The notes: generated from the letters alone by a model not told the origin. A stretch of 21,358 bases of DNA from an uncultured Deinococcales bacterium (GCA_964244895.1 CAXTKV010000077.1:1-21358), one strand, 5' to 3'; numbered from the stretch's first letter, positions 1 to 21,358 are shown. Numbers and translations are program-made.

Positions 1-1
1 G

Positions 2-241
2 ATTCAGGGCAGCCTCTCGAGCCTGAACAGCCTGACCGGGATTCTGGGGCCGCTGATCGCCACGGCAGCCTTCGGGTATTTCACGTCCGAGGCCGCCCCG
101 ATCAAGATTCCCGGCATCGCGTTCTTTCTGGGTTCCGCCTTCATTGCGGTCGCCCTGCTGATTGCCCTGCGCGCCTTTCGGAACCCCGCGTTCTCGAGAC
201 CCGCCGAACCGATGCCCGCGCCCGTCGGCTCGAGCGACTGA
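2..241 (+). CDS. C-terminal fragment of a TCR/Tet-family MFS transporter (5' end outside window)
   Basis: Frame 2 reads IQGSLSSLNSLTGILGPLIATAAFGYFTSEAAPIKIPGIAFFLGSAFIAVALLIA...GSSD* (TGA 239-241), typical of the last two TM helices of TetA-like exporters. Confidence 0.8.
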   Translation: MQGSLSSLNSLTGILGPLIATAAFGYFTSEAAPIKIPGIAFFLGSAFIAVALLIALRAFRNPAFSRPAEPMPAPVGSSD

Positions 242-243
242 AT

Positions 244-306
244 GAGAACAGCGTCCAGCACGGGTTTCCTGGCATGCTCGAGATTTGCGTGTGGGACGGT
301 GTTTTC
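244..306. repeat. Dispersed hairpin repeat (ACACCGTCCAG family)
   Basis: gagaacagcgtccagcacg ... cgtgtgggacggtgttttc imperfect inverted arms. Confidence 0.75.
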
Positions 307-422
307 GTCGATCTCGAGGGCAGGCTTCTCGAGCGTATGACACCAAATTTGAGTCAGCGTTTCGGCTCGAGATCGAATATCCCACGCGCTTACCCAGAAC
401 TGCTCGAGTTTTCATCAATCTC

Positions 423-474
423 GAGAACACCGTCCTGCACGCATTTCTTGATTCGTGTCCTGAACGGTCTTTTC
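423..474. repeat. Dispersed hairpin repeat (ACACCGTCCAG family)
   Basis: gagaacaccgtcctgcacg ... cgtgtcctgaacggtcttttc; left arm begins in CTCGAG (420-425). Confidence 0.75.
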
Positions 475-648
475 CAAAGCGAAGGACGGCGAATCCGGGT
501 CGATTCACCGTCCCATAAGCGAAGCCCGGCAACCGAGACCGTTAGCGGTACGGCGCTGGAGTTAGAAGATACGCTATCGGTTCGTCAGCTTGCATGAGAT
601 AAACCAGCCATGCCCAACACGGGGCCTTCGATTCTTTCGGGGTCGTAC

Positions 649-1605
649 TCAGGCGCTTTTCTCGAGCCCGGTCGTGATTTCGCGGTAGACGCGGCGCAAG
701 TCGGAATAGAGCTTGCGCTTGTCTTCCGGGCTGCGGCCCGACCAATCGTTGCGTCCGACCAATCGCCGCAGGGCGCTCTCGCCGCCGGGAAGCTCGCGCA
801 GTTGGCGGATCAGGTCGGCCAGGACGGTGTCACCGCTCGGGGCGGGCATCCGCGAGACGTTCGGGCTGGATGCTGCTGCGCCGTTCGATGCTGGGCTCGA
901 GGCTGCGGGACGGGCTTCCGTCGCGGCGGGCTCGAGGTGCGCGGGAGCACGAGTCGGGGCGGGCGTCTCGTCCAGCACGGCCCAGTCCGGCAGGGTCGGC
1001 GTCTCGAGCGGGCGCTTCTTGGCGTCGTCGTAATCCACCCAGACAGATTCCAGGCGGTACAGGTAACGCCCGATGCCGAACTTGACGGCGGCGCGCTTGA
1101 GGGCGTCAGAAACGGCGGCCTTGACGCTGGACGATGACTGCTCGCCCTGCATCGAGCCCTCGCCGACGTCCTCCTTGGAGATGCCAAGGATCGTGAGGCG
1201 GCATTTGGCCTGGACGGTCTGGTGGTCGATGCTGGAATCGGCGGGGTAGACCTCGTAGCTGTCGCTCCAGCCGGTCGGGCCGACCACGGCGTCCAGGCGG
1301 TCCATCACGGCTCGGGCGTCCAGGTAAGCCAGCACCAGCGCGCGGCGTTTGTCCTTGCTGACGACTTGCACCTTCCACTGGACTTCACTGGCTGGGAAGG
1401 GCTTGGCGAGTTCATTGAAAACCCTGGTCTGTTCCATGCTCAGGCGCTCCTTTGTGTCCACGCGTTCGGAGATGCGCTGCTCTAAGCTGCCCACGTCGGG
1501 GAATGGGCAACCGACCCGACCGGGCTTGGCGGGACATTTGAAGTTCGTTTGCAGGCGGCACCAACCGCCGACCGGGCTGAGGTGTGGGCACGTGTTGTCT
1601 GGCAT
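649..1605 (-). CDS. ddrA: Rad52/Rad22-family ssDNA-binding/annealing protein, DdrA-like; alternative in-frame start at 1437
   Basis: LAKPFPASEVQWK, ALVLAYLDARAVMDRLDAVVGPTGWSDSY, KCRLTILGISKEDVGEG, KAAVSDALKRAAVKFGIGRYLY are Rad52/DdrA hallmarks; Pro/Ala linker and helical C-terminal domain; AAGGAG precedes both ATG 1605 and ATG 1437. Confidence 0.85.
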   Translation of the reverse strand: MPDNTCPHLSPVGGWCRLQTNFKCPAKPGRVGCPFPDVGSLEQRISERVDTKERLSMEQTRVFNELAKPFPASEVQWKVQVVSKDKRRALVLAYLDARAVMDRLDAVVGPTGWSDSYEVYPADSSIDHQTVQAKCRLTILGISKEDVGEGSMQGEQSSSSVKAAVSDALKRAAVKFGIGRYLYRLESVWVDYDDAKKRPLETPTLPDWAVLDETPAPTRAPAHLEPAATEARPAASSPASNGAAASSPNVSRMPAPSGDTVLADLIRQLRELPGGESALRRLVGRNDWSGRSPEDKRKLYSDLRRVYREITTGLEKSA

Positions 1606-1652
1606 GTTCGGGACTCCTTCGTGATGTGCGGTGCCGGTCGTGGGGTCAAACC

Positions 1653-1958
1653 TTAGCTGGCTTTGAGGTTCAAGAGTTCGACGACCTGGCGGTCAAAATT
1701 GCGTTGCGCCATCTTGATCGGCGCGACCTGACCGTGTTCCTCGAGGTACGCGCGGGTGGCTTCGAGCCAGGCCTGGGCGAGCTTGCGCTGCGGGTCGGAG
1801 CGGTCGTAGGAGCGCACTAGGCGTGCGACGCGGTATTCGAGTTCTTCGAGCGCGTGGATGCCCTGGGTGTTCTCGAGTTCGATCAGGGCGTTCAGCACCG
1901 TGGTCGGGTGTGCGTGTTGGGCTTTGAGCGTTTTGGCGATCGTCTCGAGAATGCGCAT
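1653..1958 (-). CDS. 101-aa helical hypothetical protein divergent from ddrO, probably co-transcribed with ddrA
   Basis: GGAGGAGACC-ATG at 1958 (MRILETIAKTLKAQHAHPTTVLNALIELEN...); the longer ORF from 2084 overlaps the predicted promoter. Confidence 0.75.
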   Translation of the reverse strand: MRILETIAKTLKAQHAHPTTVLNALIELENTQGIHALEELEYRVARLVRSYDRSDPQRKLAQAWLEATRAYLEEHGQVAPIKMAQRNFDRQVVELLNLKAS

Positions 1959-2058
1959 GGTCTCCTCCGTGTCAGTCAAAGCGGGGTCAGTCGGTACTGC
2001 GTCGGTCACAACCTGCTCGTCTGGTGCGCTCGAATGAAGTACGAATACCTCTTCTTGA

Positions 2059-2075
2059 TTCTGATGGTAACATAA
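2059..2075 (-). promoter_or_regulatory. RDRM-like DdrO operator overlapping the -10 of the leftward promoter
   Basis: Minus strand TTATGTTACCATCAGAA, 17 bp with TT(A/C)(T/C)G-N7-C(A/G)(T/G)AA symmetry as in the Deinococcus RDRM. Confidence 0.8.
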
Positions 2076-2093
2076 TTTCCGCACCTAGTGCAA
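2064..2093 (-). promoter_or_regulatory. Sigma70-type promoter for the 101-aa gene/ddrA unit
   Basis: TTGCAC-18 bp-TACCAT with TG extension on the minus strand. Confidence 0.6.
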
Positions 2094-2106
2094 GTCCGGT
2101 GTCGGA

Positions 2107-2123
2107 TTACGTCTTGACCGTAA
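2107..2123 (+). promoter_or_regulatory. RDRM-like DdrO operator overlapping the -35 of the ddrO promoter
   Basis: TTACGTCTTGACCGTAA, 17 bp with perfect TTACG/CGTAA ends. Confidence 0.85.
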
Positions 2124-2143
2124 CCATATGCTCGTGCTACTCT
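2114..2143 (+). promoter_or_regulatory. ddrO promoter
   Basis: TTGACC-18 bp-TACTCT with TGn extension. Confidence 0.6.
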
Positions 2144-2265
2144 CCGCTTAACGAAGGGGTTTTCGGCTTCCGGCGTCCCATAAACGCCCTGCCCGACGGC
2201 CTCGCTCGAGGCGGGAAAGAAAAAAACCCGTCACGGAGCGCGAAAAACGCTCAAAGGAGGCAAGA

Positions 2266-2655
2266 ATGAAGTTACACGAACGACTCCGCGAGCTTCGCCA
2301 GGAGCGCGGGCAACGACTCAAGGATGTCTCCGAGATCGCCGGGATTTCGATCCCCTACCTCTCGGATCTCGAGCGCGGACGCACCAACCCGAGCCTGGAA
2401 ACCCTCCAGACGCTCGCTGGCGCGTACGGCATCAGCGTCCACGACCTCCTGGAACCCGTCGAGTTCTACGGCGAGCAGACCGAATCCGCCCTCCCGAAGG
2501 GATTGGCGGAACTGGTGGCCGACCCGGTTCTGGGCGCGCAGATTTCTGGCGATTGGGTCAACAGCCTCTCGCGCATCGAGTTGCGCGGCAAGCGTCCCCA
2601 GACCAAAGAGGACTGGTACGACATCTACCGCAACCTCAAGCGCATCCTCGAGTAA
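2266..2655 (+). CDS. ddrO: XRE-family repressor DdrO
   Basis: [15 protein letters not shown]...[25 protein letters not shown] and C-terminal [11 protein letters not shown] (IrrE cleavage region ELRGKR); 129 aa; GGAGG RBS. Confidence 0.95.
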
Positions 2656-2676
2656 GACACGCGTCTCTCACAATCG

Positions 2677-2702
2677 GCGGCGAGCATCCCTCGCCGCTTT
2701 TT
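2677..2702 (+). terminator. Intrinsic terminator after ddrO
   Basis: GCGGCGAG-catcc-CTCGCCGC followed by TTTTT. Confidence 0.75.
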
Positions 2703-2718
2703 CATTCCTCAAACACAA

Positions 2719-2771
2719 GAGTACGGCCCTGGACGCAGCCTGAAGAACGCGTGCCGGACGGTGTTCTCGAG
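2719..2771. repeat. Dispersed hairpin repeat (ACACCGTCCAG family), degenerate left arm
   Basis: Right arm cgcgtgccggacggtgttCTCGAG; left arm gagtacggccctggacgc is weak. Confidence 0.65.
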
Positions 2772-2788
2772 ACTCACGAGAGGTTGCG

Positions 2789-3154
2789 ATGGGCACAAAA
2801 GCTTCAAACGATGCGCTCAGCCAACTCCGCGCAAGCTGCCTGGTGCTGCCCGAAGCCGCAGAAACCCTGACCTGGGGAGAACCCGTCTTCCGTGTGCGGA
2901 ACAAGATTTTCGCCATGCACCGAACCGACGACGGGCGCGAATCCTTGTGGTGTAAGGCTCCGGTCGGCGCTCAAGAAGACCTGATCCGAGCCGATCCGAA
3001 ACGGTTCTTCAGGCCCCCCTACGTCGGGCCGAAAGGCTGGGTCGGCGTCAAGCTGGACGGGAAACCCGACTGGAATCTGGTCGCGTACCTGATCGAACAG
3101 AGTTACATGCTGATCGCGCCGAAGAAATTGGTCGCCATGCTCGAGCGGGACTGA
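2789..3154 (+). CDS. MmcQ/YjbR-family DNA-binding protein
   Basis: CLVLPEAAETLTWGEPVFRVRNKIFAM ... RFFRPPYVGPKGWVGVKL ... LIEQSYMLIAPKKL; GAGG RBS. Confidence 0.9.
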   Translation: MGTKASNDALSQLRASCLVLPEAAETLTWGEPVFRVRNKIFAMHRTDDGRESLWCKAPVGAQEDLIRADPKRFFRPPYVGPKGWVGVKLDGKPDWNLVAYLIEQSYMLIAPKKLVAMLERD

Positions 3155-3157
3155 TCC

Positions 3158-3209
3158 GAGAACACTGTCCTGGACGCGTTCCATAATACGTGTGCTGGAC
3201 GGTGTTCTT
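3158..3209. repeat. Dispersed hairpin repeat (ACACCGTCCAG family)
   Basis: gagaacactgtcctggacgcg ... cgtgtgctggacggtgttct. Confidence 0.8.
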
Positions 3210-3293
3210 GGAAATCTCGAGCGACCCAGAATCAGCTTTAAATCCCGTCCAGAACGCGTCACTTTGACTTTTCAAGCCTGATCCCTGAGACTG

Positions 3294-4040
3294 TTGCCCG
3301 TGGTTCTGAGCGAACACAAAACCCGCGTCCGCGAACTCGCCGCGAGCTTCTCTGCGGCGCATCCTGGGCGCGAACCGTCCGACCTGGCCGATGCGATCGG
3401 CGCGAGGCTCGAGTACGGCGATATCGGCGACAAGGACGGGATGTACGACCCGTCAAAGAACGTCGTGCTGCTCTCAAAATCCAGCGGCATGGAACGCCAG
3501 CGGTTCACGATGGCGCACGAGATCACGCACGCGCTGATCCTGAGCGACGACGATTTACTGTCTGACCTGCACGATGCCTACGAGGGCGACGATCTCGAGG
3601 AAGCCATCGAGGTCTTGTGCAACGTCGGCGCGAGCGCGATCCTGGTGCCGGAAACGGAATTGGCGTTGACCTTAGAGCGCTACGGGCGCGGCGCGAAAGT
3701 CATTCCCCGCATCGCGCAGACCTACGGCATTTCCAAGCCCGCCGCCTGCGTCACCCTGGCGCAACACCTCGAGACGCGCGCCATCGTCAGCGTGCTGCGC
3801 GCCAAGGGCAGGAGCAAGAAACGGCTCGAGGTCGAGTTCGCCGCCAAGACCGACTCGATGAAATACCCGCTCAAACCCGGCACCGTCATCCCCGAGGATC
3901 ACACCGCCTACGAAGCCCTCGAGACGGGCATCCCGACGGACGGCAAGGCCTACATTCCATTCCGGTCGGGCAAACGCATGCCCGCCAGCGTGGATGCCTT
4001 CCCGGAAGCGGGCACGGTCTACGCGGTCTTCACGGTCTAA
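3294..4040 (+). CDS. irrE: IrrE/PprI metallopeptidase (ImmA/IrrE family); start uncertain
   Basis: DGMYDP...RQRFTMAHEITHALIL-DDDLLSDLHDAYEGDDLEEAIEVLCNVGASAILVP (HExxH), HTH segment, C-terminal GAF-like part with YIPFRSGKRMPA. Confidence 0.92.
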   Translation: MPVVLSEHKTRVRELAASFSAAHPGREPSDLADAIGARLEYGDIGDKDGMYDPSKNVVLLSKSSGMERQRFTMAHEITHALILSDDDLLSDLHDAYEGDDLEEAIEVLCNVGASAILVPETELALTLERYGRGAKVIPRIAQTYGISKPAACVTLAQHLETRAIVSVLRAKGRSKKRLEVEFAAKTDSMKYPLKPGTVIPEDHTAYEALETGIPTDGKAYIPFRSGKRMPASVDAFPEAGTVYAVFTV

Positions 4041-4136
4041 CCCGATCTCGAGGGCACGATTTTTGAGGGCGAGTCTCGGGCGCAGGTTAAGCTCGAAGCC
4101 CCACAACTCGAGCTTCCCAGGACAAGGAGCGCCATT

Positions 4137-4631
4137 GTGACCACGCCGCCGCGAAACCACAAGCAGATCGCCATCGTCGTGCGCGATCTCGAGAAAGCCC
4201 TGGAGCATTACGTCAACGCGCTCGGCATCGGGCCGTGGGACGTGCGACGATTCACGCCGCAGACCGTGCGCGAGTTTCACGTCTACGGCCAGCGCGTCAC
4301 CGAAGATTTCGAGTTCGTGATCGCCGTCTGCTGGGAAGGCGAGCTGGAATGGGAATTGATCCAGCCGGTGCGCGGCCCGAACATCTACTGGCGTCACCTC
4401 GAAGTTCACGGCGAAGGATTGCACCACGTCAAGGAAATCGTGCCCGACGAACGCATCCCGCGCGTCCTGGCGGATTTCAGGGCGAAAGGTTGCGAGGTTC
4501 TGCAGACCGGCTGGATCGACGGCGACGTTCATTACTACATCGATACTGAAAAGCTGCTCGGCTTCGTCTACGAGATCGGCAACGGCGGCCCGATCGGCCC
4601 CGCAGAGCGGCGCTACCCCCCAGACGTTTGA
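4137..4631 (+). CDS. VOC/glyoxalase family protein (methylmalonyl-CoA epimerase-like)
   Basis: QIAIVVRDLEKA, ELIQPVRGPNIY, HGEGLHHV, YYIDTEKLLGFVYEI; AAGGAG RBS before GTG. Confidence 0.85.
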   Translation: MTTPPRNHKQIAIVVRDLEKALEHYVNALGIGPWDVRRFTPQTVREFHVYGQRVTEDFEFVIAVCWEGELEWELIQPVRGPNIYWRHLEVHGEGLHHVKEIVPDERIPRVLADFRAKGCEVLQTGWIDGDVHYYIDTEKLLGFVYEIGNGGPIGPAERRYPPDV

Positions 4632-4643
4632 TCTCGGCAACTC

Positions 4644-4697
4644 GAGAACACCGTCTGAGCGAATATCGCCAGAATACCGTCTGGGACGGTGTTTTTC
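4644..4697. repeat. Dispersed hairpin repeat (ACACCGTCCAG family), two left arms and one right arm
   Basis: CTCgagaacaccgtctg ... agaataccgtctgggacggtgtttttc. Confidence 0.75.
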
Positions 4698-4959
4698 GCA
4701 TATTCCCCGAAAGTCTGTCGCTCGTGGGATACGCGCTCGATGACGGCGCACTGTTCATGTCGAGGCGGGTCTTTGATCCACCCTCGAGACGAATCGGTGG
4801 CGCACGAACGATCCGATGGAGCCGCGCGTGTACGACCTTGGATACTCGAACATCCCGGTGTCTCGAGCTCGTCCCTTCTCGAGATACGGGTTTTGAAGGT
4901 CGTGTCGCCGTGTATTTTCCAGATCGAATCCCGGCGTGATGCGCGGCGTAACCTGAACC

Positions 4960-5970
4960 ATGGACGCGTCGCCAGAGATCACCGCAGTTCAACTCAAGGC
5001 TGAACCGAACATCGCCTCGAGCCCCCGAGCCAACATTCCGCAGGCCGCCACCATCGACAACGACCTCGGCATCGGGCGGGTCGCGGCGGAAGCGACCTCG
5101 AGATTCCTCAAACCCGACGGCAGCTTCGTCTCAAAACGCGAGGGGCTGGGCGCGCTCTCGAGCCTGAACCCGTACTACTGGCTGCTCAAGATTTCGTGGC
5201 CCGCGTTCTTTGCGCTGGCGGCGGGCGCGTTTCTGGGATTGAACCTGGTATTCGCCGGATTGTACTTTTTGTGCGGCTCGGACGCGCTGGTGGCGACCGT
5301 CGAAAGTCCAGCCTTGAAGAACCCTTTCTGGCGCGCGTTCTTTTTCAGCATCGAGACGCTCTCGACCATCGGTTACGGGCACATCGTGCCGTTCAGTCTG
5401 ATCGCGCACGCCCTTTCGGCGGTGCAGGCGTTCACGGGTTTGCTCGGCGCGGCGCTCGCGACGGGGTTGGTCTACGCCAGGTTCTCCAGGCCGCGCACCC
5501 GCATCTTGTTCAGCCGCAACGCCTTGGTCGCGCCCTTCCAGGACGGTTGGGCGGTGATGTTTCGCATCATCAACGGTCAACGTTCCGAGATCATCGAACT
5601 CGACGCGCAAGTCACGCTCTCGAGATTCGAGACGATCGATAGCAAGCGAACGCGGCGGTTTTACCAGCTCGCCCTCGAGCGCAATCACGTCGCCCTGTTC
5701 CCGCTCGCCTGGACGCTGGTGCATCCGATCCAGGAATCCAGCCCGTTCTGGGGTGTGACCGAACAGCAACTGCTGGAGTCCGAAGCTGAAATTCTGGTGT
5801 CGTTGCACGGCATGGACGACGTGCTGTTCCAGCGCGTCCACGCGCGCGGTTCGTTCAAGGCCGGGGATTTCGTCTGGCAAGCCAAGTTCGCCGACATGTA
5901 CCTGCGCGACCGTCCGGGCGTGGTCGCCGTGGATGCGTCGAAGCTCAGCTTGTTCGAGCCAGTGCTCTGA
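4960..5970 (+). CDS. Inward-rectifier potassium channel (KirBac-like)
   Basis: Two TM helices around AFFFSIETLSTIGYG selectivity filter; ARFSRP, LFPLAWTLVHPIQESSPFWG cytoplasmic Kir domain. Confidence 0.92.
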   Translation: MDASPEITAVQLKAEPNIASSPRANIPQAATIDNDLGIGRVAAEATSRFLKPDGSFVSKREGLGALSSLNPYYWLLKISWPAFFALAAGAFLGLNLVFAGLYFLCGSDALVATVESPALKNPFWRAFFFSIETLSTIGYGHIVPFSLIAHALSAVQAFTGLLGAALATGLVYARFSRPRTRILFSRNALVAPFQDGWAVMFRIINGQRSEIIELDAQVTLSRFETIDSKRTRRFYQLALERNHVALFPLAWTLVHPIQESSPFWGVTEQQLLESEAEILVSLHGMDDVLFQRVHARGSFKAGDFVWQAKFADMYLRDRPGVVAVDASKLSLFEPVL

Positions 5971-5991
5971 TTTCAGGGATCTAAACTTGCG

Positions 5992-6107
5992 GAACACGAT
6001 GCTGGACAGTGCCTTTCAATACCGTGGTGAACGGTGTTCTCGGGTGCTGGATCATCCTGACGTGACGGTTTTCTCCCAAGATGGCATCGTGAAAGCCGTC
6101 CAGAAAG
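5992..6107. repeat. Cluster of degenerate ACACCGTCCAG-family arms
   Basis: tgctggacagtg, gaacggtgttctc, gacggttttctc, gaaagccgtccagaa. Confidence 0.55.
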
Positions 6108-6109
6108 AC

Positions 6110-6139
6110 TTGAAGCGTTTGTACAAACGCCGTTATAAT
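6110..6139 (+). promoter_or_regulatory. TA operon promoter with perfect 16-bp palindromic operator
   Basis: TTGAAG-18 bp-TATAAT; GCGTTTGTACAAACGC (6115-6130) fills the spacer. Confidence 0.8.
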
Positions 6140-6148
6140 AAAGCAGTC

Positions 6149-7155: not shown

Positions 7156-7330
7156 CAACCTCGAAGGTGCTCAAATTCATGGCGAAAACCCAGCGTCCCA
7201 CTCGAGCGCAAGACACCTCGAGCCTGGGGCGCGACTCGTTTATGGCCTCGCGTCACGATTTCGTGCGCGCGGTTTTTGTCTCGCACTTTTCGCCAGCTCT
7301 TGAGACCACCTCAGAAGGGAGGTGAGTATT

Positions 7331-7639
7331 TTGGCTACTGCTCCAACGACCACCAAGAAAGCGACCGCGAAGCCCGCTGCGAAGAAGGCCGCTGCGAAGC
7401 CCGCCGCGAAGAAAGCTGCTGCGAAGCCCGCCGCGAAAGCTGCTCCGAAGAAAGCTGCCGTGAAAGCCGCTCCTAAGGCTGCCGCGAAAGCTGCTCCGAA
7501 GAAGGCTGCTGTGAAGCCCGCCGCGAAAGCTGCTCCGAAGAAGGCTGCCGTGAAAGCCGCTCCTAAGGCTGCCGCCAAGCCCGCCGCGAAGAAAGCTGCT
7601 GCGAAGCCCGCCGCGAAGAAAGCTGTCACGAAGAAGTAA
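7331..7639 (+). CDS. Histone H1-like Lys/Ala/Pro-rich basic protein (102 aa)
   Basis: GGAGGT RBS at 7318-7323 and in-frame TTG at 7331; KPAAKKAAA / KAAPKKAAV repeats with a 90-bp (30-aa) internal duplication; no acidic residues. Confidence 0.8.
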   Translation: MATAPTTTKKATAKPAAKKAAAKPAAKKAAAKPAAKAAPKKAAVKAAPKAAAKAAPKKAAVKPAAKAAPKKAAVKAAPKAAAKPAAKKAAAKPAAKKAVTKK

Positions 7640-7660
7640 ACCCAAGGCATTTGTTCATAC

Positions 7661-8282: not shown

Positions 8283-8413
8283 TAGTGGCTTTTGCGCGCA
8301 AGTACCCGGCGCGCAGGACACAAACCACCCAAACCGCAGCCTCGAGAGATACGTTCTCGAAGCGCGTAATACCGCGCTGTCCGCAAGGCCCTCTTACCCC
8401 AAAGGAGCGACAC

Positions 8414-9532
8414 ATGCCGCAGATTCTGGAACGACCGGATGCCTTCGAAGAAGAAATGCAGATTGACGAGCTCGGCCTCGAGCCCGCCACGGCCCTGTTC
8501 GGCTTGGACGACTACGCCGAAGAGGAACAGACCGAAACCGTAGAAGTGATCGATCCCGAAATTGCCGCTGCCGACCTCGAGGCGCAGTTGCTCGAGGAAT
8601 CCGCCCGCGTGACCCTGGGCGACCCGGTGCGCCAGTACCTCTCAGAGATCGGTCGGGTTCAGCTCCTGTCCCTCGAAGAAGAGATTTCCTTGGCGCGCCG
8701 CTACGAGGAAGGCGAGGCCGCCCGCAAGCGCCTGGAATCCGAGTCCGATGGCCTCGACGAGCGCGCGCTGCGTTCGTTGCGCCGCGTCGTCGAGGACGGT
8801 CAGGCCGCCCGCGCCCACCTGATCGAAGCCAACCTTCGACTGGTGGTCAGCATCGCCAAGAAGTTCAAGGGACGCGGCATGAGCTTGCTGGATCTGATCC
8901 AGGAGGGCAACCGCGGCCTGATGCGCGCCGTAGAGAAGTTCGAGATCTCGCGCGGCTTCAAGTTCAGCACCTACGCCACCTGGTGGATTCGTCAGGCCAT
9001 CCAGCGCGCCATCGCCGATCAGTCGCGCACGATCCGGATTCCCGTGCACCTCTCCGAAACCCTGTCTAAAGTTTCGCGCGTCAAGCGCGAACTCGAGCAG
9101 GAACTCGGGCGCGAGCCGGAGTTTGCCGAGATCGCCAAGGCCCTCGGCGAAGGCTGGACGCCCGAGCGCGTCGAGGAACTGGCCGATGTCGGCCTGGACA
9201 CGATCAGCCTGGAAGCGCCCGTCGGCGAGGATGGCGATGCGTTCTACGGTGATTTCATCGCCGCCGAGATCGACGGCAACCCCGCCGAGACGGTCACCCA
9301 GTCGCTCCTCTCCGAGGAACTCGAGCGCGCCCTGTCCCACCTGGGCGAGCGCGAGGCCAGCATCATCAAGATGCGCCACGGCCTGCTGGACGGCCAGGAG
9401 CGCACGCTCGAGGAAGTCGCCAAGGTTTACGGTGTGACCCGCGAGCGCGTGCGCCAGATCGAGTCGAAGGCGCTGCGGAAGCTCAAGTACCTCGAGAGCC
9501 GTTCGCGTCGCCTGCGCGATTTCCTGGATTGA
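8414..9532 (+). CDS. RpoD/SigA-family sigma-70 factor (possibly a diverged paralog)
   Basis: AAAGGAG RBS before ATG 8414; [64 protein letters not shown]; Thermus/Deinococcus-type ending [19 protein letters not shown]. Confidence 0.93.
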
Positions 9533-9542
9533 GCCTTTCGTT

Positions 9543-9578
9543 CTGGACGGTCTCCTCGGTATCAGAGAAGACCGTCCA
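9543..9578. repeat. ACACCGTCCAG-family hairpin with arms in swapped order, just after the sigma stop
   Basis: ctggacggtctcctc ... gagaagaccgtccag. Confidence 0.75.
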
Positions 9579-9630
9579 GGATCGTTTCAACTCGAGCGCC
9601 GCCTGCGTCTGGGCGGCGCTCTTTGCCGTT

Positions 9631-9861
9631 TCAGAAGTCGATGGTCGTCAAGGGTTCCGGTTTGAACTCGAAATCGACCTCGAAAATCGCGAAGCCGGTA
9701 TCCGCCGTCTCCGGGACGCTCGGCGTTCTCGGGTTGCTCGGGCGTCCGGTGGTGGCCCGCAAGCACTGGCGTTGCACGACGTACACGTCGGTGAGCCAGT
9801 TCGCGTCCTTCGGGGGACGAACCGATTTGTAGTTGCTCGAAACCTCCAGCGCTTTGATCAT
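9631..9861 (-). CDS. Small hypothetical protein (76 aa)
   Basis: GGAGG-7 nt-ATG start; fills an otherwise empty gap; no recognisable motif. Confidence 0.5.
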   Translation of the reverse strand: MIKALEVSSNYKSVRPPKDANWLTDVYVVQRQCLRATTGRPSNPRTPSVPETADTGFAIFEVDFEFKPEPLTTIDF

Positions 9862-9992
9862 CTCCGACCTCCGAGGGAAGAATAGGGGAGGGGGGCTGAA
9901 AGCAGTCTGGAAACTTCAAGGGTGTAAAGCCGTCTCTGGGTTCAGACTTTTAAGCCTTTCTCGAATCCGCCCAACCCAAAACTCGAGCCGAT

Positions 9993-10044
9993 GAGAATAC
10001 CGTCCTAGACGGCATTTCGAGATCGTGTGCCGGACGGCGTTCTC
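9993..10044. repeat. Dispersed hairpin repeat (ACACCGTCCAG family)
   Basis: gagaataccgtcctagac ... cgtgtgccggacggcgttctc. Confidence 0.75.
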
Positions 10045-10124
10045 GGATAATGGTCGCGCCTGAAAAGGCTCGAGGTTCCCTGGCCTCGAGCCGCAGCCTG
10101 CACATGGCTTCTATTTCAGACCCG

Positions 10125-10487
10125 TCAGGGCTTTTGAATCTCGCGCAGCATCTGCATTGCGCCGATGGCTCGAGGAAACCCCAGGTACGGCGCGGCGAAC
10201 AGGATCACCTCGCGCAATTCCTGTTCCGTCGCGCCCGCGTTGGTCGCGCCGCGCAGGTGCGTTTTGATTTCCGTCGGGTTGCCGAGCGCGATCATCATGA
10301 CGATCGCCAGGAATTCCTGGGTTTTTGGTTCCAGCCCGCCCGGTCGGTCGGTGCGGGCGTACACGTCCTTGTACACGAACTCCCGAACGTACTCTTCCAA
10401 ATCCGGGTCGAGGTCGTGCAGGCGTCGTTCGATGGCGTCCTTGTGCTTGCCCCAGATCAGGTCGCGCGGGTCGGATGGGTCGCTCAT
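10125..10487 (-). CDS. Carboxymuconolactone decarboxylase/AhpD-like protein
   Basis: EFVYKDVYAR..GLEPKTQEFLAIVMMIALG..EIKTHLRGATNAGATEQELREVILFAAPYLGFPRAI; ATG 10487 lies 6 nt after TATGCT; the longer ORF extension is repeat DNA. Confidence 0.88.
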   Translation of the reverse strand: MSDPSDPRDLIWGKHKDAIERRLHDLDPDLEEYVREFVYKDVYARTDRPGGLEPKTQEFLAIVMMIALGNPTEIKTHLRGATNAGATEQELREVILFAAPYLGFPRAIGAMQMLREIQKP

Positions 10488-10506
10488 GGCTCGAGCATAC
10501 CCAAGC

Positions 10507-10558
10507 AGACCGTTCCAGACGCTATCTGGGATGGTGCGTGCCAGACGGTGCTCTCGAG
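10507..10558. repeat. Dispersed hairpin repeat (ACACCGTCCAG family)
   Basis: agaccgttccagacgc ... gcgtgccagacggtgctCTCGAG. Confidence 0.65.
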
Positions 10559-10623
10559 ATGGGTTCTGTCCGAGAGCGAAGACGATCCCGAGATTCGCGA
10601 GAAGCCCATCGGTGGATATGAAA

Positions 10624-10648
10624 AGAACACCGTCTGGCACGGTGTTCT
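10624..10648. repeat. Minimal ACACCGTCCAG-family hairpin
   Basis: AGAACACCGT-ctggc-ACGGTGTTCT, perfect 10-bp stem. Confidence 0.8.
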
Positions 10649-10679
10649 CAAGAAATCAGAAAATGCGTTTAGAACGGTT

Positions 10680-11921
10680 TCAATCGAACTTGTAGCTCTT
10701 GGAAACGACCACGATGCCGGATTCCGTGATCTTAAAGCCGCGCGCCCGATCCGCTTCCAGATCGAAACCGATGGTCGTTCCGGCGGGTACGATCACGTCC
10801 TTGTCGATGATCGCGTTCTGGATCTTGCAGTGGCGTCCGATTTCAACCTCGTCGAACAGCACGCTGCGGTTGACCTCGCTGTACGAGTTGACGCGCACCC
10901 GGCGGAACAGGATGCTTTCGCGCACCGTGCCGCCCGAGACGATCACGCCGCCGCCGACCAGCGAATTGAGGGCGTGCCCGGTGCGGTCGCCGCCCTCGTG
11001 GACGAACTTGGCGGGTGGGCTGTCGGTGTTGACGGTGCGCAGGGGCCATTCCGGGTTGTACAGATCGAATTCCGGGCTGACGGAGATCAGGTCCATGCTG
11101 GCCTCGTGGTACGCGTCGATCGTTCCGACATCGCGCCAGTAGGTGTTGGGGCGTTCCTGGCCGGGGATCGGGTTCTTGGCGAAATCGTAGGCTTGCAGGT
11201 GGTAGCCGTCGCGCAGGGCTCTGGGCAGCACGTCCTTGCCGAAATCGTGGCTGGAGGTTTCCTCTCGGGCGTCGGCATCCAGCAGTTCGTCCAGCGCCTT
11301 GCGCGAGAAAATGTAGTTGCCCATGCTGGCCAGCGCCATGTCGGGGCGGTCGGGCATGGCTTTGGGGTCTTTGGGTTTTTCCTGAAATTCGGTGATTCGG
11401 GCGCGGTTGTCCACGCCCATCACGCCGAAGCGCGTGGCTTCGGCCAGCGGCGTCGGGTAGGCGGCGATGGTGATGTCGGCGCGGTTGGTGACGTGCATCT
11501 CGAGCATGTGCGCGACGTTCATCTTGTAGATGTGATCGCCGGAAAAAATGGCGACCGCGTCCGGGTTGTGGTTGTCGATCAGGTGCATGTTCTGGTAGAC
11601 GGCATCCGCCGTGCCGCGATACCAGACCGCGCCGAGTTCCTCGTAGCGGTACTGCTGGGCGGGCACGAGGGTGATGAAATAATCTGCCAGGAACGAACCG
11701 AATCGCCAGCCGCGCTGGATGTGTTCGGTCAGGGATTGGGCTTTGAATTGCGTCAGGACGTAAATCGAGTAAATCCCGGAGTTCATGAAGTTGTTCAGCG
11801 CGAAGTCGATGATCCGGTATTTCGAGCCGAACGGAACGGATGGTTTGGCGCGTTTGGCGGTCAATGGCGCGAGTCTGGAGCCCTGCCCTCCGGCGAGAAT
11901 CATCCCCAAGGTTCTGGTCAT
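10680..11921 (-). CDS. glgC: Glucose-1-phosphate adenylyltransferase
   Basis: [73 protein letters not shown]. Confidence 0.97.
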
Positions 11922-12137
11922 GATTCAGTATAGGCAATTCTTCGCTTTGGTGCGCGAGGTCGAGGTCAGGCGAGAAATGGCATCCCGAATGAAATCTTGC
12001 GCGCACGCGCCAACTGTCACGAGCGCCCTGAATTGCACGCTCGCGGCATCATCATTGCCGTGACGGTCTATCTTGGGCGGTGGATTCTCGAGCGTAGGGC
12101 TCGGTTTCGCTCGAGCTGATTCGTGCGTATTCCTGAA

Positions 12138-12187
12138 GAAACACCGTGCGGGACGAAGTTATTCGTTCGCGTGCTGGACGGTGTTCT
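12138..12187. repeat. Dispersed hairpin repeat (ACACCGTCCAG family)
   Basis: gaaacaccgtgcgggacg ... cgcgtgctggacggtgttct. Confidence 0.8.
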
Positions 12188-12192
12188 GGTCT

Positions 12193-14729: not shown

Positions 14730-14757
14730 GCGGATTCTCGAGGATTGTGCGATTCGA

Positions 14758-14824: not shown

Positions 14825-14881
14825 GGTTCCTCGAGAAATCTATCGAGAGCGACCGAGCGACGCATCGTGGGATGATCAAGC

Positions 14882-15247: not shown

Positions 15248-15256
15248 TCGCGCGAG

Positions 15257-15312
15257 AAGACCGTCCTGCACGCTTTCGTCTCATCTCGAGAATTGGCGTG
15301 CAGGACGGTCTT
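15257..15312. repeat. Dispersed hairpin repeat between convergent folB and mdh
   Basis: AAGACCGTCCTGCACGC / GCGTGCAGGACGGTCTT, perfect 17-bp stem. Confidence 0.85.
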
Positions 15313-15330
15313 TATTTCCAGAAGGTTGCG

Positions 15331-16314: not shown

Positions 16315-16536
16315 GGGTTCTCCTTGAGGCTCGAGCCGTGGGTTGCGTCGGGCTCGAGACGCGTTTTCGCGCACGAATCATACCGCTCCGTCACCGCGAC
16401 GAACGGGATGCTCGAGCGAGGAGGATTGAACTCTGTTCTCGGGCAGGGGAGTGGTCGAAACGGTTCGCAGGAGGTGACCTGCCCCTGCGCTCTTGCGCGA
16501 AGGTTCTCAGGCTTCGACTCGCGCCGCCCGATCTCG

Positions 16537-16586
16537 GAAACACCGTCTGGTACGCTTGTTAGTATATGCGTGCTGGACGGTGTTTC
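16537..16586. repeat. Dispersed hairpin repeat (ACACCGTCCAG family)
   Basis: gaaacaccgtctggtacgc ... gcgtgctggacggtgtttc. Confidence 0.8.
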
Positions 16587-16603
16587 TGCGTGTCCCTCGA
16601 GAA

Positions 16604-18412
16604 TCAAGCTGGGCGCGAGGCAGCCTCCGGCGCAGTCGTGGACCGAGCGGGTGTCGGCTCGCGGAACTGGCGGCGGTACAGGTCGGCGTAGCGCCCGTTC
16701 TGCTCGAGCAGTTGCGCGTGCGTGCCGCGTTCCACGATCCGTCCGGCTTCGATCACCAGGATCAGGTCGGCGCTCAAAACGGTGGATAAACGGTGCGCGA
16801 TCACGACGCTGGTGCGGCCCGCAAGAAGCGTCTCGAGGGCCTTCTGGATGATCGCTTCGGTGCGCGTGTCCACGTTGGCGGTGGCCTCGTCCAGGATCAG
16901 GATGCGCGGGTCGGCCAGGACAGCCCTGGCAAAACTGAGCAACTGGCGTTGGCCCTGCGACAGGTTCCCGCCGCCCTCGCCGAGCGGAGTGTCGTAGCCC
17001 TGCGGCAGCGCGGTAATGAAATCGTGGGCGTTGGCGGCTCTGGCCGCCGTCTCGACCTCGGTTTGCGTGGCGCTGAGCTTGCCGTAACGGATGTTTTCCC
17101 CGATCGTGCCGCTGAACAAGAACGCTTCCTGCAAGACCATCGCGATGTTGGAACGCAGGCTCTGTCTCGTGACCTCGCGCACGTCGCGCCCGTCCACGCG
17201 CACGCTACCGCCCGTCGCGTCGTAGAAGCGCGGGATCAGGCTGGCGATGGTCGTCTTGCCTGCGCCCGTGCTGCCGACCAGCGCGAGGGTCTGACCGGGT
17301 TCGACGGTGAAACTCACGTCCGTCAGGACGTTCCGGCTCGAGTCGTAACTGAAGTTGACCCGATCGAACTCGATCTTGCCGCGCGCCGCCTCCAGGGTCG
17401 GGATGTTCGGAGGGTCGGCGGGCTCGAGGGTTTCGTCCAGAATCGCGTAGATGCGTTCCGCGCCCGCCAGCGCGCTCTGAAGCTGCGTGTAGACGCTGGC
17501 CGCGAGCTGAATCGGTCGGAAGAACTGCTGCACGTACAGCAGGAAGGCCGCCAGCAAGCCGACCGTCAGGTTTCCCCGAAGCGTCAGCCAGCCGCCGTAG
17601 CCGATCACCAGCGCCGTGGCCAGCGTGCTCAGCACGTCGATCGACGGCGAGAACGCGCTGGTGATGCCGACCGCCTGAACGTTGGCGTCGCGGTTGGCGG
17701 CGTTGCGCGTCCTGAAACGGTCAATGTTCGCCTGGGTGCGGTTGAAGGCTTGCGCCTCGCGCACGCCGACGATCTCTTCTTGAATGTCCGCCGTCACGTC
17801 CCCGACCGTCTCGCGCGTGCGCCGGAAGGCGGCCCGCGCTCGAGCCGCGAAAAACGCGGTCGTCAGCAGCATCGCCGGGATGACCGTGAAACTCGCCAGC
17901 GCGAGCGGCACGTTCAGCGCCAGCATCGCCACCAGAATCCCGATCAGCCCGAACAGCGACCCCAAGAGTTGCGTCAAGCCCTGCGAAAAAAGCGTGTTGA
18001 GCGTGTCCACGTCGTTCAGCACGCGGCTCATCAGGTCTCCGACGGGCCGCGTGTCGAAATACGAGAGCGGCAAGCGCTGCAGGTGGCTGAACAACCGCTC
18101 GCGCAACCCCGCCAGCAGGCGCTGCGCGATCCCGCCGATCAGCATGGTCTGCGATCTGGACGTGATTGAACCCACGATGTAGACGCCCAGAAGCTCGAGC
18201 ATCCGCACCGTCAGGCCGTTCGGGTCGCGTTTGGAAATGTTTTCGTCGATGGCGCGCCCGACCAGCCACGGCCCGCCCGCCTGCGCCAGCGCCCCGACCA
18301 CGATCAAGAAGAACGCGAACAGCAAACTCGAGCGGTACGGCGCGAATTCCGCCAATAAACGCCGCGCCGTCTGACCGCGGTTCTTGGCCTTCTCCTGCGG
18401 AGCCTGCGCCAT
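16604..18412 (-). CDS. ABC exporter, fused TMD-NBD (second subunit of heterodimer)
   Basis: GSTGAGKTT Walker A, LSQGQRQ signature, ILILDEATANVD, VIAHRLST. Confidence 0.93.
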   Translation of the reverse strand: MAQAPQEKAKNRGQTARRLLAEFAPYRSSLLFAFFLIVVGALAQAGGPWLVGRAIDENISKRDPNGLTVRMLELLGVYIVGSITSRSQTMLIGGIAQRLLAGLRERLFSHLQRLPLSYFDTRPVGDLMSRVLNDVDTLNTLFSQGLTQLLGSLFGLIGILVAMLALNVPLALASFTVIPAMLLTTAFFAARARAAFRRTRETVGDVTADIQEEIVGVREAQAFNRTQANIDRFRTRNAANRDANVQAVGITSAFSPSIDVLSTLATALVIGYGGWLTLRGNLTVGLLAAFLLYVQQFFRPIQLAASVYTQLQSALAGAERIYAILDETLEPADPPNIPTLEAARGKIEFDRVNFSYDSSRNVLTDVSFTVEPGQTLALVGSTGAGKTTIASLIPRFYDATGGSVRVDGRDVREVTRQSLRSNIAMVLQEAFLFSGTIGENIRYGKLSATQTEVETAARAANAHDFITALPQGYDTPLGEGGGNLSQGQRQLLSFARAVLADPRILILDEATANVDTRTEAIIQKALETLLAGRTSVVIAHRLSTVLSADLILVIEAGRIVERGTHAQLLEQNGRYADLYRRQFREPTPARSTTAPEAASRPA

Positions 18413-18438
18413 GCTGGCCAGGCTTCCCGGAGGCCCCC

Positions 18439-20304
18439 TCACGCCGCACCGCCCTTGCCAATGGCCGGAACGGTCGCGGGGGCTCGAGGTGCATCGGGTT
18501 TGAGTTGCGAGCCCAGAATCTCGTTGTAGAGCTCGCTGGTCTGCAACAATTCCTCGTGCGTGCCGGAGGCTTTGATCGCGCCATCGTCCAGCACGAGGAT
18601 CAGATTCGCGTCCCTGACGGTACTGACGCGTTGCGCAATCACGAAGGTCGTGCGGTGCGCGGCGCGCATCAGCCGATCCAGCGCGTCCTGGATCAGCCCT
18701 TCGGTCTGCGCGTCCACCGCTGAGGTGCTGTCGTCCAGGATCAGCAACCTCGGGTTGACCAACAAAGCCCTGGCGATGGCGATGCGCTGGCGTTGCCCGC
18801 CAGAGAGGCCCACCCCGCGTTCGCCCACCACCGTGTCGTAACCGTTCGGCAGGTGCATCACGAACTCGTGCGCCTGAGCGGCCTGAGCTGCCGCCTCGAC
18901 CTCGGCTTGGGTGGCCTCCGGTTTGCCGTAGGCGATGTTTTCGCGCACCGTGCCGCTGAACAAGAGCGCCTCTTGCAGGACTGTCCCGACCTGCGATCGC
19001 AAACTCTCGAGCGTCACGTCGCGCACATCCAGGTCGTCGATCAGCACCGCGCCAGCCGTCGCGTCGTAGAAACGTGGGATCAGGTTCGTCAGCGTGCTCT
19101 TGCCGGAACCCGTCGTGCCGAGAAGCGCCACGACCTGACCGGGCTGGACGGTGAAGCTCACGCCGCGCAGGATCTCGCGCTCAGAGCCGGCGTACCGGAA
19201 ACGCACCTCGCGGAACTCGACCTTTCCCTGCACGGCGGGCAGTTCCTTCGCGCCAGGTTTGTCCTGAACCTCCAACGGCGCGTCCAGCACCTCGAACACG
19301 CGCAAGGCCGAAGCGCCCGCCCTCGAGATGCTGGCCGCCAGGAAGCCCAGCGTCAGGATCGGTTGCACCAGGAAACCCAGATAAGAATTGAACGCGATCA
19401 ACTCGCCGATGGTCAAGCGGCTTCCCAGCACCTCGAGCCCACCGAACCAAACGACCGCCAGCGTGCCCAGGTTGGCGAAGAAGACCACGAACGGGAAGTT
19501 GTTGCTGATCGCCTGCACCGTCTCGATGTTGCGATCGCGCAGGTTCTCGTTGGCGGCGCGGTAGCGGCTCGCCTCGAAATCCTCGCGCGCGAAGGCGCGC
19601 ACCACGCGCAAACCCTGCAAATCTTCTTGAAGGATCGTGTTCAGCTTGCCCAGCGCCACCTGCACCCGCCCGAAGAGCGGCCCGACGCGGCTGACGAAAC
19701 GAAGGAGCAGCAGCACGATCGGCGGGATCGTCAACAGGGCCACGACCGCCAATCGCGCGTTGATGGCGAGCAACAAAATCACCGTGCCGATCAAGGTCAC
19801 GCCCGCCGCCGCCATCTGCACGATGCCGCCACCGACGAAAGTGCGCACCTGTTCGACATCGTTGGTCAGACGCGTCACGAGCTGGCCCGTCTGCGCCTGG
19901 TCGTAATAGCTGAAGCTCAGGCGCTGCAACCTGGAAAACAGGCCCTCGCGCAGATCGAAGGCCACGCCCTGCGAGGCGCGCTCCGCCAGGTAACCCTGCA
20001 AGAAGGTGAACAAGCCGCGCACGACCGCCACCCCGACCAGCCCGCCGACCGCGATCAGCACGGTGTTCCAGTCACTTTTGGCGATGCCGCCATCGACCGC
20101 GATCTGGATCATGCGGGGCGCGACCAGGTTGGCCGCCGTGACAAGCAACAAGGCCACCAGCGCGCCCGCCGTCTCGAGCCGATACGATCGCAAGTATCCG
20201 AGCGCCCGCCCGACGGCCTTGCTGGCTCCCGGCGCGGGTGGAGGTCGTCCCCCAGGAGCACCAGCGCCATTGGGTGGTGCAGCGCCGTTCGGTCGTTGCG
20301 TCAT
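18439..20304 (-). CDS. ABC exporter, fused TMD-NBD (first subunit of heterodimer)
   Basis: GTTGSGKST, LSGGQRQR, LILDDSTSAVD, IAQRVST; GGAGG RBS before ATG 20304. Confidence 0.93.
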   Translation of the reverse strand: MTQRPNGAAPPNGAGAPGGRPPPAPGASKAVGRALGYLRSYRLETAGALVALLLVTAANLVAPRMIQIAVDGGIAKSDWNTVLIAVGGLVGVAVVRGLFTFLQGYLAERASQGVAFDLREGLFSRLQRLSFSYYDQAQTGQLVTRLTNDVEQVRTFVGGGIVQMAAAGVTLIGTVILLLAINARLAVVALLTIPPIVLLLLRFVSRVGPLFGRVQVALGKLNTILQEDLQGLRVVRAFAREDFEASRYRAANENLRDRNIETVQAISNNFPFVVFFANLGTLAVVWFGGLEVLGSRLTIGELIAFNSYLGFLVQPILTLGFLAASISRAGASALRVFEVLDAPLEVQDKPGAKELPAVQGKVEFREVRFRYAGSEREILRGVSFTVQPGQVVALLGTTGSGKSTLTNLIPRFYDATAGAVLIDDLDVRDVTLESLRSQVGTVLQEALLFSGTVRENIAYGKPEATQAEVEAAAQAAQAHEFVMHLPNGYDTVVGERGVGLSGGQRQRIAIARALLVNPRLLILDDSTSAVDAQTEGLIQDALDRLMRAAHRTTFVIAQRVSTVRDANLILVLDDGAIKASGTHEELLQTSELYNEILGSQLKPDAPRAPATVPAIGKGGAA

Positions 20305-20413
20305 CAAGATCCTCCCCGCGCGGCCCTGTTCCGGGTCGAGCGCAGTAGACATTACATCCCCTGGGCCGTGAATCGCTCGTGAACGCGGCTACATTAATCT
20401 CGAGGTTGTGCAT

Positions 20414-20469
20414 GAGAACACCGTCCAGCACGCGAAATCGAGGACGCGTGCTGGACGGTGTTTCTCGAG
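20414..20469. repeat. Best-preserved ACACCGTCCAG-family hairpin
   Basis: AACACCGTCCAGCACGCG-10 nt-CGCGTGCTGGACGGTGTT, perfect 18-bp stem, followed by tCTCGAG. Confidence 0.9.
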
Positions 20470-20508
20470 AATCTAAGCTGAGGTACGTCACGCCGTATGC
20501 TCGAGGAC

Positions 20509-21252
20509 ATGAAATTCTGGCAACTGGCCCTGATCTCGAGCCTCACGCTGTTGAGCATCACGCTCGTTCTCGCGTCGGGCACAGTTCAGGTCGGTGTGTT
20601 CGACCCGAAAACCCTGAAACCCACCGATCAGGGCGACCTGTTCACCGTTCAGAACGGCGAGCCCGCCCAGCGTTTAACCACCTGGGGCCACAATTTCGCG
20701 CCCGTGATCTCGAGGGATGGGCGCTTCGGCGTGTACCGATCAAAGACTCAAGCCTCACTGGATGCGGACGCCATCGTGGGCGCTCCTGGCCCGCCGTCTG
20801 TGGTCAACCTGTACGTACTCGATCTCGAGCGATTGAAGATTCTCAAGCTGACCTCGCAGGGTGCGATCCGATCAGATGTCGTGTGGTCTCCGGATTCGGG
20901 TGCTTTCGCGTGGCTCGAGAGTCGGCCCGGAACACCCGATACGGTCACTGGTCCAAATCGTCTGATGTTGTACGCACTCAAGCAGGGGCGCACCCGAGAA
21001 CTGCTCGGTGGTGTCCCATCCAACGGTGGGGTGGGCGGGTGGGATATCTTTTACCTTCGATGGACTTCGCGCGGCATTCTGGTGGCGGCTGATCCCACGG
21101 ACACCTTGACCAATTTCGAGTGCTATCTGGTGGATGTAGCGCACGGTGGGCGCATCCGCCGTGCCACGGTTCCCAAAGCTGTTCCCGCGTACAAACCCAA
21201 TGGCGCTGTGAGCGATGAAACGTATTTCTCACCGTGTGCGAGGATCTTCTAA
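20509..21252 (+). CDS. Putative secreted protein with TolB-like beta-propeller repeats
   Basis: Signal-like MKFWQLALISSLTLLSITLVLA; RLTTWGHNFAPVISRDGR and KLTSQGAIRSDVVWSPDSGAFAW resemble PD40 repeats. Confidence 0.65.
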   Translation: MKFWQLALISSLTLLSITLVLASGTVQVGVFDPKTLKPTDQGDLFTVQNGEPAQRLTTWGHNFAPVISRDGRFGVYRSKTQASLDADAIVGAPGPPSVVNLYVLDLERLKILKLTSQGAIRSDVVWSPDSGAFAWLESRPGTPDTVTGPNRLMLYALKQGRTRELLGGVPSNGGVGGWDIFYLRWTSRGILVAADPTDTLTNFECYLVDVAHGGRIRRATVPKAVPAYKPNGAVSDETYFSPCARIF

Positions 21253-21275
21253 AGCCCGCCCCATCAGGAACCCCG

Positions 21276-21353
21276 TTCTTGCTCACGGAAGAGCACCTGC
21301 CGGGCTGTTCGCGCTTCTTGCTCACGGAAGAGCACCTACCGGGCTGTTCGCGC
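21276..21353. repeat. 39-bp tandem duplication (2 copies, 1 mismatch)
   Basis: ttcttgctcacggaagagcacct(g/a)ccgggctgttcgcgc at 21276-21314 and 21315-21353. Confidence 0.9.
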
Positions 21354-21358
21354 TCCAG

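Follow-up and report, generated by a model that had tools for sequence, protein, structure and literature searches.

CTCGAG as a highly iterated palindrome of an uncultured Deinococcales family, possibly kept by a local drive in DNA exchange

Which force could keep a single six-base palindrome in large excess over a bacterial genome, within genes and between them? The question is raised by a 21,358-nucleotide stretch from an uncultured Deinococcales bacterium (GCA_964244895.1, CAXTKV010000077.1:1-21358; hereafter the window, meaning this whole stretch), in which CTCGAG recurs over 1..21358 in genes of both strands and in the spacers, the first copy at 16 and the last at 20914. We analysed the window, the rest of its genome and related Deinococcota, and found CTCGAG to be a genome-wide and family-wide highly iterated palindrome (HIP).

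Abundance of CTCGAG against composition and codon usage

Counted exactly, the window (GC 62.3%) contains 115 CTCGAG, compared with 7.1 expected from base composition (order 0, a 16-fold excess) and 10.5 under an order-2 model (10.9-fold), in good agreement with an earlier sequence-only reading that had given about 115 sites, about 7 expected and a 15-fold excess. The whole focal genome (G000; 5.12 Mb in 328 contigs, the longest 66 kb, 91% complete) carries 21,883 copies (4.3/kb, one per 234 bp), with contigs above 5 kb ranging from 1.6 to 8.3/kb (median 4.3). CTCGAG is its top-count hexamer, 12.7-fold over order 0 and 9.84-fold over order 2, and the second-ranked hexamer reaches 3.84-fold over order 2. 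Among the 16 N-TCGA-N words, CTCGAG alone is strongly enriched (9.84) and the other fifteen lie at 0.21-1.54 (order 2), so the TCGA tetramer bias that the earlier reading had named beforehand as a full alternative explanation does not account for the excess. The maximal-order model (order 4) gives a ratio of 1.25, which is low because most of the 5-mers it conditions on, 43,766 of 61,425 over both strands, come from CTCGAG itself. Flank preference is weak (8-mer ratios 0.47-1.21), and the majority of other six-base palindromes are depleted, including CGATCG (0.32), the core of the cyanobacterial HIP1, and CGGCCG, the lowest of all hexamers (0.01).

Codon controls were run on genes called by a simple codon-scoring script rather than a validated gene finder (4,415 genes, of which 4,395 were N-free and used; it missed one open reading frame (ORF) of the window, the H1-like one described below). 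By codon frame, Leu-Glu frame first, these genes hold 11,144, 791 and 3,197 sites, where synonymous shuffling within genes expects 3,121, 64 and 455, so that all three frames remain above the shuffles (3.6-, 12.4- and 7.0-fold). CTC makes up 84% of leucine codons before GAG versus 28% before GAA, and CGA makes up 45% of arginine codons in a site-making context versus 9% overall. Density is 6.2/kb outside called genes versus 3.75/kb within them, reaching 7-8.5/kb in spacers under 400 bp and staying at 5.4/kb in non-coding DNA away from repeats. In the window, 50 of the 115 sites lie outside the 21 gene models (5,088 nt); the Leu-Glu frame takes 46 of the rest, and the two other frames take 8 and 11. 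By these models and frames the sigma-70 factor gene (8414..9532, plus strand), with 7 sites and 11 Leu-Glu pairs, is a typical coding case. The earlier view that Leu-Glu codons explain part of the sites, and not the intergenic or other-frame ones, agrees with both the shuffles and the spacer density.

A purely compositional or repeat-borne origin, in which codon, dipeptide or TCGA bias or the spread of repeats resembling repetitive extragenic palindromes (REP-like) produces the excess, can draw on the Leu-Glu frame holding 74% of coding sites and on a REP-like intergenic hairpin family (2,911 arm cores genome-wide, arms of 18-19 nt, frequently ending in or near CTCGAG) that raises local density to 8.8/kb. 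Just 2,281 of the 21,883 sites lie near non-coding repeats, however, and together with the shuffles and the TCGA words this count refutes such an origin, to which we give almost no chance.

The force behind CTCGAG is strong enough to change amino acids in proteins. Leu-Glu is the most over-represented dipeptide of the focal proteome (2.11-fold), with observed-to-expected (O/E) ratios of 2.0-2.7 across the family (f1), where Thermus-like and Deinococcus-like samples give about 1.0 (such genus and group labels, Meiothermus-like included, are inferred, not given names). At CTCGAG-coded Leu-Glu pairs of the focal genome, orthologues from site-poor genomes have Leu-Glu in 25 of 90 cases. Ribosomal protein genes, chosen by eye, contain 4 sites where 16 are expected; their Leu-Glu pairs are few as well, and we do not count this as evidence.

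Spread and conservation in Deinococcota

The closest named relatives of the malate dehydrogenase encoded in the window are Deinococcota records. All 18 other genomes of family f1 carry 4.6-6.8 CTCGAG/kb, with a 14-26-fold excess in sampled stretches, and the focal genome is the lowest of its family. Across 150 genomes of other families, densities were 0.01-0.27/kb in the Deinococcus-like genus g2 (77 genomes), 0.6-1.6/kb in the Thermus-like genus g3 (27 genomes), 1.4-3.4/kb in the Meiothermus-like g4, g6 and g7 (20 genomes), 0.7-2.9/kb in family f4 and 0.6-2.4/kb in f5. G148 is the sole raised g3 genome (2,803 sites in 1.8 Mb, about 1.6/kb; the other g3 genomes 0.6-1.1). The Leu-Glu-frame excess over synonymous shuffles, taken from sampled stretches of 20-160 kb per group with small counts, was 3-11-fold in f1, 2.4-4.0 in Meiothermus-like genomes, 1.1-2.4 in f4 and f5 and 0.1-1.2 in g3 and f2. 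The Meiothermus-like and Truepera-like groups show a moderate excess and the Thermus-like and Deinococcus-like groups none. A 50-kb stretch of an A. silvanus plasmid had 1.26 sites/kb, a weak excess, and 75 non-Deinococcota loci, mostly Streptomyces, had at most 1.1/kb. A viral scan for triple sites returned mostly codon-explained cases, with an order-2 O/E of at least 6 in 3 of 79 loci, and none of the viral loci tested matched the focal genome's proteins.

In the f1 relatives (G152, G153, G154, G156, G158, G162 and others) nearly all other GC-rich six-base palindromes are avoided (median O/E 0.00-0.26), and the reversed word GAGCTC occurs at most 25 times in 16 of 18 relatives versus 568 times in the focal genome. 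This avoidance would fit heavy restriction exposure during DNA exchange. In g26 and g27, two genera of these relatives, GGCC drops to 0.00-0.02 of its expected count, the focal genome being much milder.

Conservation was measured in six g26 genomes that share about 86% identity, over about 51 kb aligned with at least five rows, the focal genome having no close relative in the set. CTCGAG was conserved pairwise at 0.86, 0.71 and 0.78 in the three frames and at 0.80 in non-coding DNA, compared with 0.46-0.47 over hexamers as a whole; it ranked 5th of 900, 58th of 892 and 12th of 914 by frame and 3rd of 423 non-coding hexamers. Single-base losses confined to one genome numbered 117 versus 207 expected; single-genome gains numbered 2 versus 1.9 expected, few conserved one-off slots being left to gain from. 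The proposal of the sequence-only reading that this lineage has its own HIP is therefore supported: CTCGAG is found genome-wide, in all frames, in non-coding DNA, throughout the family and at orthologous positions.

At synonymous sites all six positions favour the site base, against transitions and transversions (position 6 against the synonymous transition only), with odds ratios relative to matched control codons of 4.6-30 in the focal genome, 4.7-174 in the single-contig relative G156 and 9-240 in G153 and genus g27 (one zero-count cell excluded). The preference runs counter to GC preference at T in position 2 and A in position 5, and its weaker form in the focal genome parallels that genome's weaker palindrome avoidance. 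Since Vsr-type and deamination mechanisms each favour one change, a preference at all positions excludes both; a deamination ratchet from CCCGGG was ruled out too, transversion neighbours being depleted as well. Rate fits on the six-genome tree gave a stable equilibrium frequency of the site base (0.90-0.97) with unidentifiable gain and loss rates, and for that reason we draw no gain/loss asymmetry from them. Sites may also be lost too often by C-to-T change at the inner C, where control rates saturate.

Spacing, candidate proteins and the force behind the sites

Sites are distributed almost at random. In 2-kb windows of the genome the mean is 8.5 and the variance 9.2 (variance/mean 1.08), and gaps are near-exponential with a coefficient of variation (CV) of 0.96, which indicates that sites act almost independently. 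The uneven distribution described earlier consequently lies within chance: the glgC-like gene (10680..11921, minus strand; nucleotidyltransferase and hexapeptide families by Pfam) has 1 site versus 4.7 expected (P = 0.054), and 39 of 360 genes of similar size have 0-1, while the Lys/Ala-rich H1-like ORF (7322..7639, plus strand), with no site and no Leu-Glu pair, expects 1.2. The product of this ORF is a 105-residue Lys/Ala/Pro repeat protein resembling histone H1-like tails, with no Pfam family match.

Within genes, an available Leu-Glu slot is CTCGAG more often with distance from the nearest other site (0.56 rising to 0.77), two control codon choices being flat, and permuting site status among slots gave a CV of 0.965 versus the observed 0.894 (z -7.7). 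Pair counts up to 200 bp were 0.84-0.92 of uniform within genes of the focal genome, with a deficit of 41% at 12 bp or less and of 4-12% out to 200 bp, and none in pooled controls. Relatives showed the deficit below 30-60 bp only, and the raw focal genome showed none. We take the short-range exclusion to be real and the effect at 60-200 bp to be uncertain. This short-range deficit, the sole robust departure from random spacing, is consistent with repair or conversion in short patches. A period of 10.3 bp did not reach significance (its power was 6.4 times the mean over about 185 frequencies), and conservation rose marginally with isolation of the site (rho 0.10, P = 0.04; flank control P = 0.06).

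These patterns bear on the possibility that CTCGAG is kept by selection because an abundant protein of chromosome organisation or repair binds it. Strong conservation that includes non-coding sites, denser spacers even away from repeats, and slot occupancy rising with isolation all speak for it, and for HIP1 a case for selection has been made by Xu et al. (PMC5861425). However, each genome would then need about 22,000-35,000 sites, each beneficial almost independently of the others; spacing is barely more even than random, no CTCGAG cluster was found at dnaA in the focal genome, there is no significant short period, and sister lineages do without the motif. We consider such selection somewhat unlikely.

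Active orphan CTCG(m6A)G methylases are reported in Meiothermus ruber, M. chliarophilus and Marinithermus hydrothermalis, with none for CTCGAG among the six supplement rows on M. silvanus (PMC4752239). On these precedents, a methyl-directed repair ratchet of the type modelled by Elhai (PMC4390886) could maintain the word here if its methyltransferase had gone undetected, in an assembly that is 91% complete, or been lost recently. The focal genome has four DNA methylases: a PglX-like and a type I HsdM-like protein, both labelled from sequence reading, a beta-class enzyme (beside an ORF without a name) and an alpha-class enzyme (beside a NotI-family nuclease; L004:1273-3185, G000:C6), none plausible as a CTCGAG orphan. 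CGGCCG, the most depleted hexamer, is a possible target of the alpha-class methylase and its nuclease. Neither a C5 methylase nor Vsr was found in this assembly. G156 encodes one C5, two D12-class and two Eco57I-domain enzymes and no N6_N4 enzyme, and C5 methylases are present in 18 of 18 f1 relatives, yet scattered over 14 clusters among the 30 loci examined.

Three candidate amino-methylase families, screened by family in four f1 relatives, had no orthologue in the searched f1 genomes. The first, a TaqI-like enzyme closely matching the solved M.TaqI structure (E 2.5e-126), was absent from G000 and from the Eco57I-domain matches of those four relatives; over 151 genomes profiled, it occurs in g8, g13 and all 27 g3 genomes, which lack the excess. 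The second (L016 type) was found in 0 of 19 f1 genomes and the third (L098 type) as distant matches only (E above 1e-25) in 4 of 19. The L016 type occurs in 12 of 15 g4 and 7 of 12 f5 genomes. The L098 type occupies the remaining 3 g4 genomes and is also found in the two g7 genomes and in G086, there as the neighbour of an XhoI-family nuclease. The two are unrelated, mutually exclusive and jointly cover 15 of 15 g4 genomes (L016, L078-L096, L098, L138-L143), a pattern that suggests non-orthologous replacement of one function. Among the families searched, putative CTCGAG methylation accompanies the moderate carriers and was not found in the strongest.

In profiles over one set of 80 chosen genomes the L016 and L098 types do not match the motif, nor is it tracked by the XhoI nuclease (4 of 80), Vsr (7 of 80, 0 of 19 in f1) or NucS (32 of 80, absent from 7 of 8 g27 genomes). 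PF12705 (AddAB), profiled in the same set, was not found in G000 and occurs in 5 of 18 f1 relatives, 4 of 4 g3 and 5 of 11 g2 genomes, so RecBCD/AddAB do not follow the motif as they would a Chi-type signal. In f4 the XhoI-family nucleases (L166-L168, in G065, G121 and G025) are paired with a beta-class methylase, the pairing in G086 being gamma-class; the beta-class enzyme has no orthologue in the focal genome (25% identity). The search for an orphan CTCGAG or TCGA methyltransferase, through which the earlier reading had hoped to ground maintenance by methylation-directed repair, thus gave no candidate in the focal genome and none conserved over the 19 f1 genomes. The L016/L098 complementarity, the nuclease neighbour in G086 and the orphan enzymes of two Deinococcota genera still lend the methylation ratchet some weight; against the lack of orthologues in the densest family, the scattered C5 enzymes, the TaqI-like enzyme without excess in g3 and the M. 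silvanus rows, we hold it to be unlikely.

By analogy with the DNA uptake sequences (DUS) and uptake signal sequences (USS) of Neisseria and Pasteurellaceae, CTCGAG might instead accumulate by biased import. The doubling of the encoded peptide matches the behaviour of uptake sequences (PMC2817400), and the same role has been proposed for HIP1 (PMC13756078). Sites also flank hairpins 3' of genes. In the window, a REP-like hairpin at 20399..20469 (18-nt perfect arms at 20417-20434 and 20445-20462) has CTCGAG at 20399 and 20464, and a second at 16537..16601 (19-nt arms, 84% complementary) has one at 16596. Competence-like genes are present, namely genes that motifs or inspection by eye, and these only, mark as pilin-like, PilN/O/Q-like and ComEA-like. 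With one site every 150-230 bp, however, any kilobase fragment holds several, and uptake bias should then saturate, whereas the per-site preference stays strong; known uptake sequences are moreover longer and non-palindromic. An uptake signal appears very unlikely to us.

What any explanation must cover (abundance, codon independence, conservation, six-position preference and near-random spacing) is direct observation, and our tentative choice, held with less than even confidence, is that CTCGAG is kept by a local drive in homologous DNA exchange. The force would favour the complete six-base word at each site separately: heteroduplex formed in exchange would be resolved toward the strand with an intact CTCGAG by a putative effector protein, during transformation or recombination between chromosome copies. 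Such a drive would probably be selfish and not adaptive; the orphan CTCGAG methylases found elsewhere in Deinococcota would then be protective recruits, not its cause. The competence-like genes fit exchange of this kind, and in cyanobacteria added HIP1 sites raise transformation and integration (10.1101/2024.09.10.611283). We prefer a drive to binding-site selection because the sites seem too many, too independent and too dispensable in sister lineages for the latter, and because the loss of other palindromes in f1 suggests heavy DNA traffic.

Several points weigh against this preference. The screens turned up no effector gene, and biased conversion and positive selection share one population signature, which the tests here do not separate. 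The higher density outside genes fits a binding function equally well. A site-cutting enzyme would normally drive loss of its site, so the intact strand needs protection; methylation is the obvious mark for that, yet no methylase was found. Deinococcus-like genomes, which we take to be competent, avoid palindromes and are without the motif. In a cross-frame test, frame-1 and frame-2 sites avoided non-site Leu-Glu about as much as they avoided sites, an ambiguous result. The sharper proposal, a methylation-independent, sequence-specific gene-conversion drive in this family, in which the same DNA traffic purges nearly all other six-base palindromes, is more doubtful still. If it is true, a drive writes the word every 150-230 bases and rewrites the proteome; bacteria would then have a drive whose target is an entire word, and it would serve as a model for the origin of HIP1.

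Other features, related systems and meaning

A dense run of 8 sites at 193..425 is mainly spacer with degenerate REP-like arms (repeat cores at 295 and 426), and stretches of the REP-like family lie at 230-620, 2700-2790, 3140-3260, 4640-4720, 12110-12190, 16537-16586 and 20417-20462. Between 649 and 4040, Pfam matches place Rad52-like, XRE and IrrE-like genes within 3.4 kb; the first two would be DdrA-like and DdrO-like, and the group suggests a clustered radiation-desiccation response module. A tRNA prediction cluster elsewhere in the genome (G000:C151, about 8400-11100) holds 4 of the 6 tRNA calls containing CTCGAG.

Dcm/Vsr very-short-patch repair is a repair-type process able to enrich a methylase target. 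CTCGAG lacks its signature, a Vsr with a C5 methylase and a one-transition bias: Vsr is missing from the 19 f1 genomes, and the bias spans all positions and transversions. DUS and USS are non-palindromic 9-10-mers, whereas CTCGAG is a six-base palindrome with weak flanks, shorter and several-fold denser; the likeness lies in peptide doubling and occurrence beside hairpins (PMC2817400). The orphan methylases of Meiothermus, Marinithermus and Nocardia share the target, two of these genera belonging to the same phylum (PMC4752239). That source reports methylation and, for Nocardia, the only genus for which its main text mentions CTCGAG, clusters at the origin; the focal genome has no cluster at dnaA.

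The nearest likeness is to HIP1 (GCGATCGC) and the alternate cyanobacterial HIPs, also short palindromes in genome-wide coding and non-coding excess (PMC4390886; PMC5861425; PMC13756078), conserved between genomes beyond codon effects and shared by a lineage. CTCGAG matches them in over-representation, in all-frame and non-coding excess and, in the relatives, in conservation. It differs from GCGATCGC in being a six-base word of another phylum, in its density (about 4-7/kb, compared with roughly 1/kb for HIP1; Elhai, PMC4390886), in favouring every position where HIP1 favours mainly the outer ones, and in that the searches found neither a cognate methylase conserved across the densest family nor a cognate orphan in the 91% complete focal assembly. 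The focal genome also falls below the O/E line of 16 for HIP1-rich genomes (Xu et al., PMC5861425), which was drawn with a different null model. CTCGAG works like HIP1 and yet is not HIP1; it is a lineage-wide variant of the highly iterated palindrome phenomenon. A term search of PMC4390886, PMC13756078 and PMC4060949 gave no mention of CTCGAG, and we found no published description of an excess for Meiothermus, Truepera or Deinococcus-Thermus in a search that lay outside most subscription journals.

Collectively, these results make Deinococcota an independent HIP case, with a natural density gradient, moderate carriers in culture, and methylases whose presence varies independently of the motif, so the cause can be tested by gene-content comparison and transformation assays. 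To our knowledge HIP1 has been without an explanation for three decades and confined to one phylum. In this Deinococcales family, a force acting at the level of DNA measurably shapes protein sequence.

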